A stretch of 64,000 nucleotides of DNA from Escherichia coli (lineage in GTDB: Bacteria; Pseudomonadota; Gammaproteobacteria; Enterobacterales; Enterobacteriaceae): NCBI RefSeq assembly GCF_003019035.1, contig NZ_CP027447.1; one strand, written 5' to 3'. Under the pieces are notes generated by a model. It saw only the letters and a list, made by a program, of their open reading frames with translations, searched no databases and was not told where the DNA came from. The position numbers and the translations under genes were made by a program. The stretch's first letter is position 1. The number at the start of each line of letters is the position of its first letter. Shown here one piece after another: positions 13,552 to 42,355 of the stretch.

Positions 13552-14460
13552 ATGAAAACGGGATCTGAGTTTCATGTCGGTATCGTTGGCTTAGGGTCAA
13601 TGGGAATGGGAGCAGCACTGTCATGTGTCCGCGCAGGTCTTTCTACCTGGGGCGCAGACCTGAACAGCAATGCCTGCGCTACGTTGAAAGAGGCAGGTGC
13701 TTGCGGGGTTTCTGATAACGCCGCGACGTTTGCCGAAAAACTGGACGCTCTGCTGGTGCTGGTGGTCAATGCGGCCCAGGTTAAACAGGTGCTGTTTGGT
13801 GAAACAGGCGTTACACAACATCTGAAACCCGGTACGGCAGTAATGGTTTCTTCCACTATCGCTAGTGCTGATGCGCAAGAAATTGCTACCGCTCTGGCTG
13901 GATTCGATCTGGAAATGCTGGATGCGCCAGTTTCTGGTGGTGCAGTAAAAGCCGCTAACGGTGAAATGACTGTCATGGCCTCCGGTAGCGATATTGCCTT
14001 TGAACGACTGGCACCCGTGCTGGAAGCCGTTGCCGGAAAAGTTTATCGCATAGGTGCAGAACCGGGACCAGGTTCGACCGTAAAAATTATTCACCAGTTG
14101 TTAGCGGGCGTACATATTGCTGCCGGAGCCGAAGCGATGGCACTTGCAGCCCGTGCGGGGATCCCGCTGGATGTGATGTATGACGTCGTGACCAATGCCG
14201 CCGGAAATTCCTGGATGTTCGAAAACCGGATGCGTCATGTGGTGGATGGCGATTACACCCCGCATTCAGCCGTCGATATTTTTGTTAAGGATCTTGGTCT
14301 GGTTGCCGATACAGCCAAAGCCCTGCACTTCCCGCTGCCATTGGCCTCAACAGCATTGAATATGTTCACCAGCGCCAGTAACGCGGGTTACGGGAAAGAA
14401 GACGATAGCGCAGTTATCAAGATTTTCTCTGGCATCACTCTACCGGGAGCGAAATCATGA
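13552..14460 (+). CDS. ltnD: L-threonate dehydrogenase (3-hydroxyisobutyrate dehydrogenase family, 302 aa)
   Basis: N-terminal Rossmann GxxGxxG (VGIVGLGSMGMG); corresponds to ygbJ. Confidence 0.88.
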   Translation: MKTGSEFHVGIVGLGSMGMGAALSCVRAGLSTWGADLNSNACATLKEAGACGVSDNAATFAEKLDALLVLVVNAAQVKQVLFGETGVTQHLKPGTAVMVSSTIASADAQEIATALAGFDLEMLDAPVSGGAVKAANGEMTVMASGSDIAFERLAPVLEAVAGKVYRIGAEPGPGSTVKIIHQLLAGVHIAAGAEAMALAARAGIPLDVMYDVVTNAAGNSWMFENRMRHVVDGDYTPHSAVDIFVKDLGLVADTAKALHFPLPLASTALNMFTSASNAGYGKEDDSAVIKIFSGITLPGAKS

Positions 14461-18595: not shown

Positions 18596-18626
18596 AAAAA
18601 GGTCCGATGGGCATCGGACCTTTTAT
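18596..18626. terminator. Bidirectional rho-independent terminator between convergent ygbN and the decarboxylase small-subunit gene
   Basis: AAAAGGTCCGATG..CATCGGACCTTTT inverted repeat flanked by A/T runs. Confidence 0.55.
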
Positions 18627-18863
18627 TTAGCGCTTACCTTCCGCCAGCAGCGGCGGGATGCTCGGCACCATCGGCGCGTCATCAATATCTTTCTGCGTCA
18701 TGCGGAACGCTTCGGGATAATGTTCGCGGCTGGTGCGGCGCAGCGGTTCGGTATCGCGCCAGGTATAGAGGCAATGCTGGCACTGGTAGACCGTCCAGAC
18801 ATCTTTTACCGGCGATTTCGCCATCACTTCAATCTGTTCATCAGCACAACGTGGACAAATCAT
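18627..18863 (-). CDS. Small subunit of UbiD/UbiX-type aromatic acid decarboxylase (EcdD/KpdD/BsdD-like, 78 aa), zinc-ribbon CPRC...CQHC
   Basis: 78-aa ORF with two Cys pairs, AAGGAG RBS, immediately downstream of UbiD-like gene. Confidence 0.75.
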   Translation of the reverse strand: MICPRCADEQIEVMAKSPVKDVWTVYQCQHCLYTWRDTEPLRRTSREHYPEAFRMTQKDIDDAPMVPSIPPLLAEGKR

Positions 18864-18873
18864 CTTGTTCTCC

Positions 18874-20325
18874 TTATTGACGTGCGGCCAGCATAGCGGT
18901 CAGTTTTTCAGCCCAGGCTTTGGTTTCCGGTAAATCCACCACCGGCTGACTGTAGTGACCGCGGTTGTCCGGGGCGACAGGCGTGGTGGCGTCGATAATC
19001 AGCTTGTCGGTGATCCCCGCCGGGCTTGAGCCTGGGTCGAGTTCCAGCACGGACATATTCGGCAACTGCACCAAATCCCCTGCCGGGTTCACTTTCGAGG
19101 AGAGCGCCCACATCACCTGCGGCAGGTTGAACGGATCAACGTCTTCATCGACCATAATCACCATCTTCACATAGCCCAGACCGTGCGGCGTGGTCATCGC
19201 ACGGAGGCCCACCGCGCGGGCAAAGCCACCGTAGCGTTTTTTGGTGGAGATAATCGCCAGCAGGCCGTGGGTGTACATGGCGTTTACCGCCTGCACTTCC
19301 GGGAACTCGGCTTTCAGTTGCTGATACAGCGGCACGCAGGTGGCTGGCCCCATCAGGTAGTCGATTTCCGTCCACGGCATCCCGAGATAGAGCGATTCAA
19401 AAATGGGTTTGCTGCGATAAGAGACGTTATCGATGCGCACCACGGTCATGTTGCGCCCGCCGGAGTAGTGCCCGGTAAACTCACCGAACGGCCCTTCGAT
19501 TTCACGTTTACGGCTTTCGATGACACCTTCGAGGATCACTTCTGAACCCCACGGCACATCAAAACCAGTCAGCGGGGCGGTGGCGATCGGGTACGGGCTT
19601 TCACGCAGCGCGCCTGCCATTTCGTACTCGGACTGATCATATTTCAGCGGCGTGGCCCCCATCAGCGTGATGATCGGATCGTTACCGAGGGTGATCGCAA
19701 TCGGCAGATCTTCACCGCGCTCTTCCGCTTTATGCAGATGCAGGGCGATATCGTGCATCGGCACCGGTTGCAGGCCGAGCTTACGTTTGCCCTTCACTTC
19801 CATGCGGTAGATACCGACGTTCTGCTTGCCGAAGTTATCCGGATCAAGCGGATCGCGGGAAACCACGCACGCTTTGTCGAGATAGAAACCGCCATCGCCA
19901 TCGTTTAAACGAAACAGCGGCAGGATATCGAACAGGTTGATCTCGTCTCCATCGACGGTGTTCTGCGCCCAGGCTGGATTGGCTCGGCGTTCCGGGGCAA
20001 TCGGGAAGTTGTCCCAGCGGCGGATAAACTCATCGATCTGTTTTTTAACCGGGGTATTTGGCGGCAGGCCGAGGGAAATCGCGTGGTTCTGCCAGGAACC
20101 GATGGTGTTCATCGCCACGCGGGCATCGGTAAAGCCGCGAATATTATCAAACCACAGCGCTGGCGCGCCGTCGCCGATACGCCCGGTGGCGTTGGCTGCG
20201 GCTGCCAGATCCGGTTCTGCGTTCACCTCTTCGCTGATTTTCAGCAATTGCCCATGGTCGTCGAGCGCCCTACCAGGCCATCGGCGTAACCGGCACGGAT
20301 ACCGGCGAGCGTTTTCATACTGCAC
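18874..20325 (-). CDS. UbiD-family (prenyl-FMN dependent) decarboxylase, EcdC/KpdC-like; N-terminal ~18 codons are non-homologous read-through from a deletion junction, start codon uncertain
   Basis: ~465 residues of UbiD-family sequence; ORF begins at GTG 20325 inside the upstream UbiX-like fragment. Confidence 0.7.
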   Translation of the reverse strand: MQYENARRYPCRLRRWPGRALDDHGQLLKISEEVNAEPDLAAAANATGRIGDGAPALWFDNIRGFTDARVAMNTIGSWQNHAISLGLPPNTPVKKQIDEFIRRWDNFPIAPERRANPAWAQNTVDGDEINLFDILPLFRLNDGDGGFYLDKACVVSRDPLDPDNFGKQNVGIYRMEVKGKRKLGLQPVPMHDIALHLHKAEERGEDLPIAITLGNDPIITLMGATPLKYDQSEYEMAGALRESPYPIATAPLTGFDVPWGSEVILEGVIESRKREIEGPFGEFTGHYSGGRNMTVVRIDNVSYRSKPIFESLYLGMPWTEIDYLMGPATCVPLYQQLKAEFPEVQAVNAMYTHGLLAIISTKKRYGGFARAVGLRAMTTPHGLGYVKMVIMVDEDVDPFNLPQVMWALSSKVNPAGDLVQLPNMSVLELDPGSSPAGITDKLIIDATTPVAPDNRGHYSQPVVDLPETKAWAEKLTAMLAARQ

Positions 20326-20579
20326 GGAATAACGATCATGCCGTCGGTACGAAAGGAACCTGAGGAGATGGTCGCCGCCTGATCCGCCGAGTTATGGCTG
20401 AAGTCTGCGAGGGCAGCAACATCGCGAGCGCTGTAAGGCGTTTCCAGTTCAATGGTGGTTTTCGCCCACGTCGACATCACCAGATGAGTCTCGACATTCG
20501 GCATCTCCCGCAGCGCTTGCAGTAATGCCACACCAAGAGGCGCACCGGTAGCCCCTGTCATCCCGACGATCAGTTTCAT
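20241..20579 (-). pseudogene. Truncated UbiX/Pad1-family flavin prenyltransferase (EcdB/KpdB-like): only N-terminal ~105 residues remain, then frameshifted tail and stop
   Basis: Translation matches UbiX through ...DGLVGR then diverges (STTMGNC*); full UbiX is ~190 aa; 3' end overlaps UbiD-like ORF. Confidence 0.75.
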
Positions 20580-20596
20580 TGCTTACTCTCTTAATT

Positions 20597-20610
20597 GTTC
20601 GTATACGAAC
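20597..20610. promoter_or_regulatory. Perfect 14-bp palindrome GTTCGTATACGAAC in divergent promoter region; candidate MarR-family operator
   Basis: Read directly; lies between divergently oriented decarboxylase genes and MarR-family gene. Confidence 0.35.
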
Positions 20611-20725
20611 GTTATTATTAACATACTCCTTCATTTCCACAGCGGCAAGGATTGAAAAGTAACAACATCTTCTTCGTCACTGAAAAACCGCTATGATAGC
20701 GACAGAGAATTAGCCCGGAGTTTAC

Positions 20726-21133
20726 ATGGCGTTACGAAATAAAGCGTTCCATCAGTTACGACAGCTTTTTCAGCAGCATACGGCCCGCTGGCAGCACGAG
20801 TTACCTGACCTGACCAAACCACAGTACGCGGTGATGCGCGCCATTGCTGATAAGCCTGGTATCGAACAGGTGGCACTGATAGAAGCAGCAGTCAGCACCA
20901 AAGCAACGCTGGCAGAAATGTTGGCAAGAATGGAAAATCGTGGCTTAGTCAGACGTGAACATGACGCCGCTGATAAGCGGCGACGCTTTGTCTGGCTGAC
21001 TGCCGAAGGAGAAAAGGTACTTGCTGCGGCGATACCGATTGGCGACAGTGTGGATGAGGAATTTTTGGGGCGTTTGAGTGGAGAAGAGCAGGAGCTGTTT
21101 ATGCAGCTGGTGCGCAAGATGATGAGCAAATAG
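20726..21133 (+). CDS. MarR/SlyA-family transcriptional regulator (135 aa)
   Basis: Winged-helix MarR-like sequence, divergent from decarboxylase genes. Confidence 0.8.
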   Translation: MALRNKAFHQLRQLFQQHTARWQHELPDLTKPQYAVMRAIADKPGIEQVALIEAAVSTKATLAEMLARMENRGLVRREHDAADKRRRFVWLTAEGEKVLAAAIPIGDSVDEEFLGRLSGEEQELFMQLVRKMMSK

Positions 21134-21207
21134 GATGTTGATTGCCGGATGGGACGCTGACGTGTCTTATCCAGGCGACAAAACACACCGACTCCCAAAT
21201 AAAAGAA

Positions 21208-21240
21208 AAAGGCCAGCCTCGCTTGAGACTGGCCTTTCTG
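21208..21240 (-). terminator. rpoS rho-independent terminator (AAAGGCCAG...CTGGCCTTT hairpin followed by T-run on minus strand)
   Basis: Inverted repeat with adjacent A-run on plus strand just downstream of rpoS stop. Confidence 0.55.
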
Positions 21241-21252
21241 ACAGATGCTTAC

Positions 21253-22245
21253 TTATTCGCGGAACAGCGCTTCGATATTCAGCCCCTGCGTTTGCAGGAT
21301 TTCGCGCAAACGGCGCAGGCCTTCAACCTGAATCTGGCGAACACGTTCACGGGTGAGGCCAATTTCACGACCTACATCTTCCAGTGTTGCCGCTTCGTAC
21401 CCCAGCAAACCGAATCGACGTGCCAGTACTTCACGCTGTTTGGCGTTCAGCTCGAACAGCCATTTGACGATGCTCTGCTTCATATCGTCATCTTGCGTGG
21501 TATCTTCCGGACCGTTCTCTTTTTCATCGGCCAGGATGTCCAGCAACGCTTTTTCGGAATCACCACCCAGCGGGGTGTCTACCGAGGTAATGCGCTCGTT
21601 AAGACGAAGCATACGGCTGACGTCATCAACTGGCTTATCCAGTTGCTCTGCGATCTCTTCCGCACTTGGTTCATGGTCCAGTTTATGGGACAACTCGCGT
21701 GCGGTTCGCAGGTAAACGTTCAGCTCCTTTACGATGTGAATCGGCAAACGAATAGTACGGGTTTGGTTCATAATCGCCCGTTCGATCGTCTGGCGAATCC
21801 ACCAGGTTGCGTATGTTGAGAAGCGGAAACCACGTTCCGGGTCAAACTTCTCTACCGCGCGGATCAGCCCCAGGTTGCCCTCTTCGATAAGATCCAGCAA
21901 AGCCAGACCACGATTGCCATAACGGCGGGCAATTTTTACCACCAGGCGCAAGTTACTCTCGATCATCCGGCGGCGAGAGGCAACATCTCCACGCAGTGCG
22001 CGACGCGCAAAATAAACTTCTTCTTCGGCCGTTAACAGTGGTGAATAACCAATCTCACCAAGGTAAAGCTGAGTCGCGTCCAGCACACGCTGTGTGGCTC
22101 CCTGCGATAACAGTTCCTCTTCGGCCAAATCGTTATCACTGGGTTCCTCTTCTACTAAGGCCTTTTCGTCAAAAACCTCAACTCCGTTCTCATCAAATTC
22201 CGCATCTTCATTTAAATCATGAACTTTCAGCGTATTCTGACTCAT
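21253..22245 (-). CDS. rpoS: RNA polymerase sigma factor RpoS (sigma-38, 330 aa)
   Basis: Sigma-70 family regions 2-4; start [14 protein letters not shown]; codon 33 is GAG (Glu), no amber. Confidence 0.97.
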
Positions 22246-22307
22246 AAGGTGGCTCCTACCCGTGATCCCTTGACGGAACATTCAAGCAAAAGCCTGGTTC
22301 CGCCGAT

Positions 22308-23447
22308 TTATCGCTGCGGCAAATAACGCAGCGGGTTTACGGATTTCCCCTTGTAACGAATTTCAAAATGCAAGCGTGTTGAACTGGTTCCGGTGCTACC
22401 CATGGTTGCTATTTTTTGCCCCGCCTTCACTTCTTGTTGTTCCCGGACCAGCATTGTGTCGTTATGGGCGTAGGCACTCAGGTAATCATCATTATGTTTG
22501 ATGATAATCAGATTACCGTAGCCGCGCAGCGCGTTACCGGCATAAACAACGCGGCCATCTGCAGTCGCGATAATTGCCTGTCCTTTGCTGCCTGCGATAT
22601 CAATCCCCTTGTTGCCCCCCTCAGAAGCGCCAAAGGTTTCGATCACTTTGCCCTCAGTCGGCCAGCGCCAGGTGGAGATAGGCGTACTGGTTGATGTACT
22701 GCTGACAGTCGGCTCGGTTGTGCTTGCTGTTGGTACCGTTACAGGCGCTGTGACCGTGGTCGCAGTTGGCTTGTTGTTCGGCAACATTTTGTTAGCACTC
22801 TGTTCACCCGAAGACTCAGAATACGTAATTGTCGGTTGCGACGCAACAGCAACGGTGGAATTTTGTGCAGGCTTGATCACAACTCCTTGCTCTGCTGCGT
22901 CGGCCTGGGTAATGGCATTTCCGCCAGTGATTGGCGTACCGGAAGCATTCCCCACCTGTAAGGTCTGACCGACGTTCAGCGCGTATGGTGCCTGAATATT
23001 GTTGCGCTGAGCAAGGTCACGGAAATCGTTGCCAGTAATCCAGGCGATATAGAAAAGTGTGTCGCCTTTTTTCACTGTATAGGTACTGCCGCTATAACTG
23101 CCTTTCGGAATGTTCCCATACTGACGGTTATAGACGATGCGTCCGTTTTCCATCTGTACCGGCTGCTGAGCTACTGGCTGCACCGGCTGGATTTGCGGTT
23201 GTTGAGTGGCCTGAATTTGTGGCTGCTGTACCGGCTGAATTTGCGGTTGCTGCGCTGTAGACGTCGTCCCCATTTTCGGCGGCGGCGTAATCAACATACC
23301 AGAATTGGTATTTGCAGGCGCATTGCCATTAACGGAGCTGACCGGGGCCGGTGGATTTGAAGTGTCAGAACAGCCTGCCAGCCATAGCGAAACCAGTGAC
23401 AAAGCCGCAATGCGGCGAACGGTGAATTTTGGGCTTCCCGCGCTCAT
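22308..23447 (-). CDS. nlpD: Murein hydrolase activator lipoprotein NlpD (LysM + LytM/M23 domains, 379 aa)
   Basis: Lipobox LAGC, LysM, C-terminal M23-like domain. Confidence 0.95.
23154..23252 (-). repeat. In-frame imperfect tandem repeat inside nlpD encoding QQPQIQ(P/A)(V/T) units
   Basis: Three ~24-27-bp repeats visible in DNA and protein. Confidence 0.6.
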
Positions 23448-23586
23448 TTATCCCCCAGGAAAAATTGGTTAATAACCAGTGACATAATTACCGTGCAAGG
23501 CACCATACTGAACACTGGAAAAGATGTTCACGATACGCTGACCTGCGGCAAAATAACCAGGAAAAATCCAGGTATTTCCTCACGTT

Positions 23587-24948
<1,362 letters not shown>

Positions 24949-32394: not shown

Positions 32395-33094
32395 CGGTTT
32401 ATCCCCGCTGGCGCGGGGAACACTTGCAGTAGCACTTCAGTTCTGTTTTTGTCACCGGTTTATCCCCGCTGGCGCGGGGAACACGCCTGATAGCGCCTCC
32501 AGCCTTCGCCCTGGTGCGGTTTATCCCCGCTGGCGCGGGGAACACTGCATAGCTTTGGCTTCTTCTTTAACGGACGCCGGTTTATCCCCGCTGGCGCGGG
32601 GAACACAGTACCACTGTTTTTTCTTCGGTGCCCAGCCACGGTTTATCCCCGCTGGCGCGGGGAACACGTTTACATATTTATACCTACACGCTCAATCGAC
32701 GGTTTATCCCCGCTGGCGCGGGGAACACCCGTTTTCGATTGAACAGAAAGATTTCAACACCGGTTTATCCCCGCTGGCGCGGGGAACACAATACAGACCC
32801 GTTGTACGGTTTTTGCGAGCACGGTTTATCCCCGCTGGCGCGGGGAACACTTGGAAATCACCTCCCCGATCTCCGCGCTGTCCGGTTTATCCCCGCTGGC
32901 GCGGGGAACACCCCTCGGCAAAAATGCCTTTTTCCTCGTCGGTCGGTTTATCCCCGCTGGCGCGGGGAACACCACGGGCCAGACGGTAGCAACAATTTTA
33001 CGGCCGGTTTATCCCCGCTGGCGCGGGGAACACCAAAACGGAAGTGCCAGTATTGCCAGAATCACCGGTTTATCCCCGCTGGCGCGGGGAACAC
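32395..33094 (-). CRISPR. CRISPR array 1 (type I-E): 12 identical 29-bp repeats CGGTTTATCCCCGCTGGCGCGGGGAACAC (plus-strand reading), 11 spacers of 32 bp; leader at high-coordinate end
   Basis: Repeat starts at 32395, 32456, 32517, 32578, 32639, 32700, 32761, 32822, 32883, 32944, 33005, 33066; perfect 61-bp periodicity. Confidence 0.98.
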
Positions 33095-41938: not shown

Positions 41939-42091
41939 CTACTTCTTCGATTCGTAAGCGAGAACCGCCTTAAACTCCATACCACGTTCTCTGATACTCA
42001 ACTCACACAACGAGTCGCCTACCATCAGCGTGAATCCCAGTACTGTAAAACACAGCACTATGATTGCCACAAGGGCATATTTTGTCAGCAT
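41939..42091 (-). CDS. hokX: Hok/Gef-family type I toxin (50 aa), likely hokX of the hokX-sokX locus
   Basis: Own translation [52 protein letters not shown] helix + conserved LCE...AYES Hok signature; GGAGG RBS; below 60-aa cutoff so absent from ORF track. Confidence 0.8.
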
Positions 42092-42355
42092 GTCTTGCCT
42101 CCCTGCAAAGAAGAGACTAACATTCGAATTGTTTGGGTTCGAACGCTGGCCTCAGGTTGATAGAAATATCGCCTGGGGCTTTTGTCCATCTGGAACCTCG
42201 CGAATGCTTAACGCCAGACAGCCTCAAGCACCCAACGCCATTCTATACCTGTTAATTCTTCCAACGACGTTCACGTTTAAAATCAGGAATGCTGCTCGCA
42301 AAATAAAAACGCCCCCATCATTTCTGACAGAGGCGTTTAATTTATCCGGCAATAT

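Follow-up and report, generated by a model that had tools for sequence, protein, structure and literature searches.

An intact rpoS allele with glutamate at codon 33 in Escherichia coli DNA nearly identical to that of the commensal isolate SCU-301

The rpoS gene of the window, by which we mean the whole 64-kb stretch of DNA analysed here, is an open, full-length frame with GAG at codon 33, and we read it as the functional allele typical of the species, carried here by a natural, non-K-12 E. coli almost clonal with strain SCU-301, a reading to which we give a probability of about 0.93. rpoS encodes sigma-S (sigma-38), the alternative sigma factor that steers RNA polymerase to general-stress and stationary-phase promoters. 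An intact rpoS with glutamate at residue 33 (E33) is already known and ordinary, and the finding makes no open question testable. Its value is one of bookkeeping: the strain can be annotated as a carrier of the standard E33 rpoS, and a K-12 laboratory stock is excluded as the source of the window.

The rpoS coding sequence lies at 21253-22245 on the minus strand, from the ATG at 22245-22243 to the TAA at 21255-21253, and is translated into 330 residues without interruption. The preliminary description had given the gene as an open frame of 330 codons at these positions with GAG at codon 33 (22147-22149, minus strand), and both statements hold when the minus strand is read directly. Its further claim, that the gene carries neither an amber codon nor a frameshift, is borne out by exact alignment to rpoS of MG1655 (NC_000913.3, b2741), which is free of gaps over the 993 nt and contains no indel, frameshift or nonsense codon. 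With its open frame, a sense codon at position 33, an intact cis region and no IS insertion or internal deletion, the gene falls in the wild-type allele class; a consensus assembly such as this one is blind to rpoS-mutant subpopulations.

The list of open reading frames starts the rpoS frame 12 codons earlier, with an ATG at 22281 (21253-22281, 342 aa); were this the true start, the product would have 342 residues and all codon numbers would shift by 12. We consider this vanishingly unlikely. RefSeq annotates the start at 22245 in SCU-301, ST648 and MG1655, and the RpoS profile and the solved structures likewise have their first residue at the Met encoded there. The Shine-Dalgarno sequence TAGGAG (22253-22258, minus strand; -13 to -8) places its AGGAG at -12 to -8 of the ATG at 22245 and belongs to a leader segment, -161 to -1, that is identical to K-12, while the ATG at 22281 is predicted to sit within internal stem-loops enclosed by a long leader helix. 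The upstream start was therefore rejected on the profile, structure and annotation alignments together with the position of the Shine-Dalgarno sequence, and numbering from 22245 is kept throughout.

The identity of the product is equally well defined. It scored 604.6 bits against the RpoS equivalog model NCBIfam NF004207 (cut-off 394), in an alignment that pairs residues 1-329 with positions 1-329 of the profile, and 480.7 bits against TIGR02394 (cut-off 378.7); the models for RpoD, RpoH and other sigma factors all stayed under their cut-offs for this product. An equivalog score of 604.6 bits for a 993-nt ORF is no chance event. The Pfam sigma-70 regions follow one another in the expected order on the minus strand: region 1.2 (residues 56-88, 21982-22080; PF00140, E = 4.8e-12), region 2 (residues 94-163, 21757-21966; PF04542, E = 3.5e-23), region 3 (residues 174-248, 21502-21726; PF04539, E = 2.6e-22) and region 4 (residues 262-315, 21301-21462; PF04545, E = 5.7e-17), with no RpoD-type region 1.1 or non-conserved-region insert. 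Region 2, which includes residue Ile128, serves core polymerase binding and the recognition and melting of the -10 element, and region 4 carries the helix-turn-helix that binds the -35 element. Residue 173, directly before region 3, is Lys (21727-21729, minus strand), a residue that we take to have a role in turnover by RssB and ClpXP. The gene order surE-pcm-nlpD-rpoS is the same in the window as in SCU-301, ST648 and MG1655, and the nlpD-rpoS operon arrangement is alike in the window, SCU-301 and ST648. On the equivalog models, the order of the regions and the position downstream of nlpD, the product belongs to RpoS, in group 2 of the sigma-70 family. The exact 330-residue protein is present among public proteins on at least 1000 contigs under the name 'MULTISPECIES: RNA polymerase sigma factor RpoS [Enterobacteriaceae]'.

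Comparison with reference rpoS sequences, which had been suggested as a check on the allele, gave Q33E as the sole missense difference from MG1655. There are 11 substitutions between the two genes, of which C97G changes CAG (Gln33) in MG1655 to GAG (Glu33) in the window; the other 10 are synonymous, so that the proteins have the same length and 329 of 330 identical residues. The rpoS of SCU-301 shows 100% DNA identity to the window gene, and that of ST648 aligns without gaps and differs by a single synonymous change at codon 100 (21946, minus strand; CGC in the window, CGT in ST648); both encode WP_000081550.1. The CGC codon is the sole difference from the next-best genomes, which have CGT, and among the matches listed it is shared only by SCU-301. 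Among solved structures, the sigma-S chain of PDB 5ipl, like those of 18 further holoenzyme entries, has E33 as in the window and differs only by S2G and R329L, which we take to be construct changes, whereas the K-12 construct of PDB 6kj6 differs from the window protein at residue 33 only. The rpoS(Am33) of W3110, J53, HMS174 and similar K-12 stocks is the same gene with the same polymorphic codon, but there the codon is TAG and truncates full-length sigma-S.

Codon 33 is known to be polymorphic, being TAG in some K-12 strains and encoding Glu, Tyr or Gln in others; GAG is usual in non-K-12 isolates and was found in all VTEC strains tested (PMC2700278). To place the window allele, 63-mers centred on codon 33 were compared with 5,426 complete E. 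coli genomes and exact matches were counted. The GAG context was found in 4,818 genomes, or about 89%, typically natural isolates, a count that is a lower bound since genomes with another SNP in the 63-mer carry no codon assignment. CAG was found in 173 genomes (MG1655 and its derivatives) and TAG in 121 (W3110, J53, HMS174, S17-1, NCM3722 and other K-12-derived stocks). Non-exact matches to the GAG 63-mer came from 433 and 163 genomes, with the CAG and TAG genomes among them. The statement in the preliminary description that some K-12 lineages have an amber at codon 33 thus agrees both with the 121 genomes and with the literature (PMC2700278). The window gene is the standard E33 allele, as one would expect of a natural isolate; 'wild-type', as applied to it, means the species-typical E33 allele and not the MG1655 reference (CAG/Gln).

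At least 80% of the length of rpoS lies in one place in 5,400 of the 5,426 genomes. Twelve genomes gave no match, and a further 14 fell short of this coverage. The TAG-33 63-mer was also present in BLR(DE3) and in isolates labelled 'chicken', 'chicken meat' and 'mouse gut' (O16:H48), which are presumably K-12-derived recipients or laboratory strains.

As K-12 stocks may carry TAG, CAG, GAG or TAT at codon 33 (PMC2700278), a GAG codon might also arise by pseudo-reversion of the K-12 amber in a laboratory derivative. The remainder of the DNA makes this origin exceedingly improbable. The window gene has the 10 further synonymous differences from MG1655 rpoS; past the terminator it is followed by a MarR/slyA-like gene and ecdBCD, which are absent from K-12; and over all of its 64 kb the window is a near match to SCU-301 (NZ_CP051751.1), isolated from the rectal swab of a healthy student. 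A K-12 amber revertant is ruled out by the synonymous differences and the content of the flanking genes, and we retain the reading of a natural E33 allele.

The activity of the E33 protein can be judged from published work. Iwase et al. built rpoS K-12/Gln33Glu (PMC5405132), and because Q33E is the only missense difference from K-12, the protein of that construct is the one encoded in the window. Substitution at residue 33 left HPII catalase activity and glycogen levels unaffected, and survival of H2O2 with K-12/Gln33Glu did not differ significantly from that with the K-12 allele (PMC5405132). Greater sensitivity to cold stress was seen in residue-128 variants only; a hydrophobic residue is required at position 128, and Ile128Asn abolished RpoS activity (PMC5405132). 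The window protein has Ile at this position and no missense change from K-12 at activity-abolishing residues such as this one, Q33E being its sole missense difference. Ferenci and colleagues likewise describe the Q33E difference as common and functionally similar in activity (PMC3074542).

The cis-acting region was compared with K-12 in the same way. nlpD (22308-23447, minus strand) encodes 379 aa with LysM and M23 domains and lies in an operon with rpoS; its protein is identical to that of K-12, and its DNA has 13 synonymous differences. The rpoS promoter presumably lies inside nlpD, together with most of the long rpoS leader. Upstream of the rpoS ATG, the segments -161 to -1 and -704 to -319 are identical to K-12, as are the promoter region and the terminator, and four leader substitutions were found, at -318, -294, -183 and -162. 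All four fall at third codon positions and are synonymous in nlpD, and ST648 carries all of them; we therefore regard them as ordinary lineage polymorphisms. In the 615-nt stretch before the ATG, identity to the window is at least 99% in 5,383 of 5,420 matching genomes. A scan of 21000-23600 for consensus sigma-70 promoters returned 0 sites against 2.0 expected and is uninformative for the rpoS promoter in nlpD, so the integrity of the promoter rests on its identity to K-12.

Within the leader, the segment from -119 to -97 (GAAATTCGTTACAAGGGGAAATC; 22342-22364, minus strand) is identical to K-12, and we take it both to form the upstream arm of the inhibitory hairpin and to be where the sRNAs DsrA, RprA and ArcZ pair. 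In the minimum-free-energy fold predicted for -150 to +30, this arm is base-paired to the sequence surrounding the start codon (-54.3 kcal/mol, z = -2.2), and the predicted fold fits the known self-inhibited rpoS leader. An (AAN)4 motif at 22430-22441 and an A6 motif at 22412-22417 (together 22412-22441, minus strand), presumably the Hfq-binding elements of the leader, are unchanged with respect to K-12; the substitution at -183 is 2 nt downstream of the first, and that at -162 is 5 nt downstream of the second. An Rfam scan of the whole window at gathering thresholds reported sok only, and the rpoS leader was matched by no curated family. On the other side of the gene, after the stop codon, is a strong intrinsic terminator with a 15-bp stem, 7 G-C pairs and a T-run (21206-21239, minus strand). 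The alignment to K-12 breaks at 21206, right after this terminator, a point known as the boundary of the variable mutS-rpoS region.

Given these features, the window gene would be expressed in the manner described for rpoS of E. coli. Transcription would proceed from the promoter inside nlpD, and the leader hairpin would hold back translation until opened by Hfq-dependent sRNAs. ClpXP would degrade sigma-S following recognition by RssB around K173, and under stress sigma-S would accumulate, bind core RNA polymerase and transcribe the general stress regulon (e.g., katE, glg and osmY). From the sequence, we infer that the strain would produce active sigma-S and be positive for HPII catalase and for glycogen.

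The preliminary description had gone on to predict that the strain is RpoS-proficient. At the level of the genotype this is right, with an intact frame and an E33 protein that is the experimentally active K-12/Gln33Glu (PMC5405132). It is a prediction from one locus, and sigma-S levels are also set by loci outside the window, so the proficient phenotype is likely, held with somewhat less assurance than the reading of the allele itself. RpoS levels vary among strains for reasons beyond the rpoS sequence (PMC3074542), and rssB, hfq, crl, spoT/relA, dsrA/rprA/arcZ and the ira genes all fall outside the 64-kb window. The strain might thus be RpoS-attenuated with its rpoS intact, through ppGpp metabolism, RssB, Hfq, the sRNAs, Crl or the leader polymorphisms at -183 and -162, whose closeness to the (AAN)4 and A6 motifs speaks for the last of these. 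We hold such attenuation to be improbable. Those substitutions are shared with the unrelated ST648 and sit at third codon positions of nlpD, the leader stretch is at least 99% identical in all but a few of the matching genomes, and no change is seen in the motifs, the sRNA pairing site, the hairpin or the Shine-Dalgarno sequence. In addition, RpoS-null strains are rare (about 2%) among carefully handled natural isolates, and those mutations arose in the laboratory (PMC3484664); because of this rarity, an intact rpoS is the default expectation. The species-typical, functional E33 allele accordingly remains our reading of the gene.

A more speculative suggestion, to which we give slightly less credence still than to attenuation, is that the leader variants at -183 and -162 and the CGC at codon 100 may retune sigma-S synthesis in this clade, giving a non-standard RpoS level despite the intact allele. 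If true, such retuning, along with a private deletion in ecdB/ecdC (described below), would be a sign that the hypervariable mutS-rpoS region is still undergoing micro-evolution.

The neighbourhood of the gene also bears on the provenance of the window. Over its whole length, the window differs from SCU-301 in four places, namely the 315-bp ecdB/ecdC deletion, 8 bp, 61 bp and one SNP, none of which is in nlpD-rpoS. Between rpoS and ygbN (18600-21206) are a divergently oriented MarR/SlyA-like regulator (20726-21133, plus strand) and ecdB-ecdC-ecdD. This insert is the 'pattern IV' (E2348/69-like) arrangement of the hypervariable mutS-rpoS region (PMC4209514). K-12 is without the block, and there rpoS runs straight into ygbN, whereas ST648 has the block and is without ygbI-N.

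The 315 bp missing with respect to SCU-301 map to a junction at 20265-20269 (20241-20579, 18874-20325) that is flanked by 5 bp of GGCGC microhomology. As a result, the UbiX-like subunit B (EcdB/KpdB) of a hydroxyarylic acid decarboxylase is cut off after residue 105, leaving a 112-aa ORF that matches positions 1-89 of 162 of the Pfam Flavoprotein model, and the UbiD-like subunit C (EcdC) loses its start together with its first 12 codons. Since the undeleted 615-bp form is present in all of the best 25 of 2,381 matching complete genomes, the deletion looks either private to the source of the window or an assembly artefact.

At about 39003, between cas3 and casA of a type I-E CRISPR-Cas system, 8 bp of SCU-301 (AAGGAT..) are absent from the window, in an intergenic stretch where the cas operon would have its promoter region. 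The CRISPR array at 32423-33065, adjoining cas2e/iap, is 61 bp (one repeat and spacer) shorter than in SCU-301, so the window is a sister isolate or an alternative assembly and not the SCU-301 record itself. A SNP at 13813, in ltnD/ygbJ (L-threonate dehydrogenase), is T in the window and C in SCU-301 on the strand in the orientation of rpoS; about 33 kb on that side of the window contain no other substitution. Between cysH and cas3 (42076-42233, minus strand) is a chromosomal hok/sok-type toxin-antitoxin locus; its Rfam sok match reaches 111.1 bits (gathering score 59), and SCU-301 annotates a Hok/Gef family protein at the same place.
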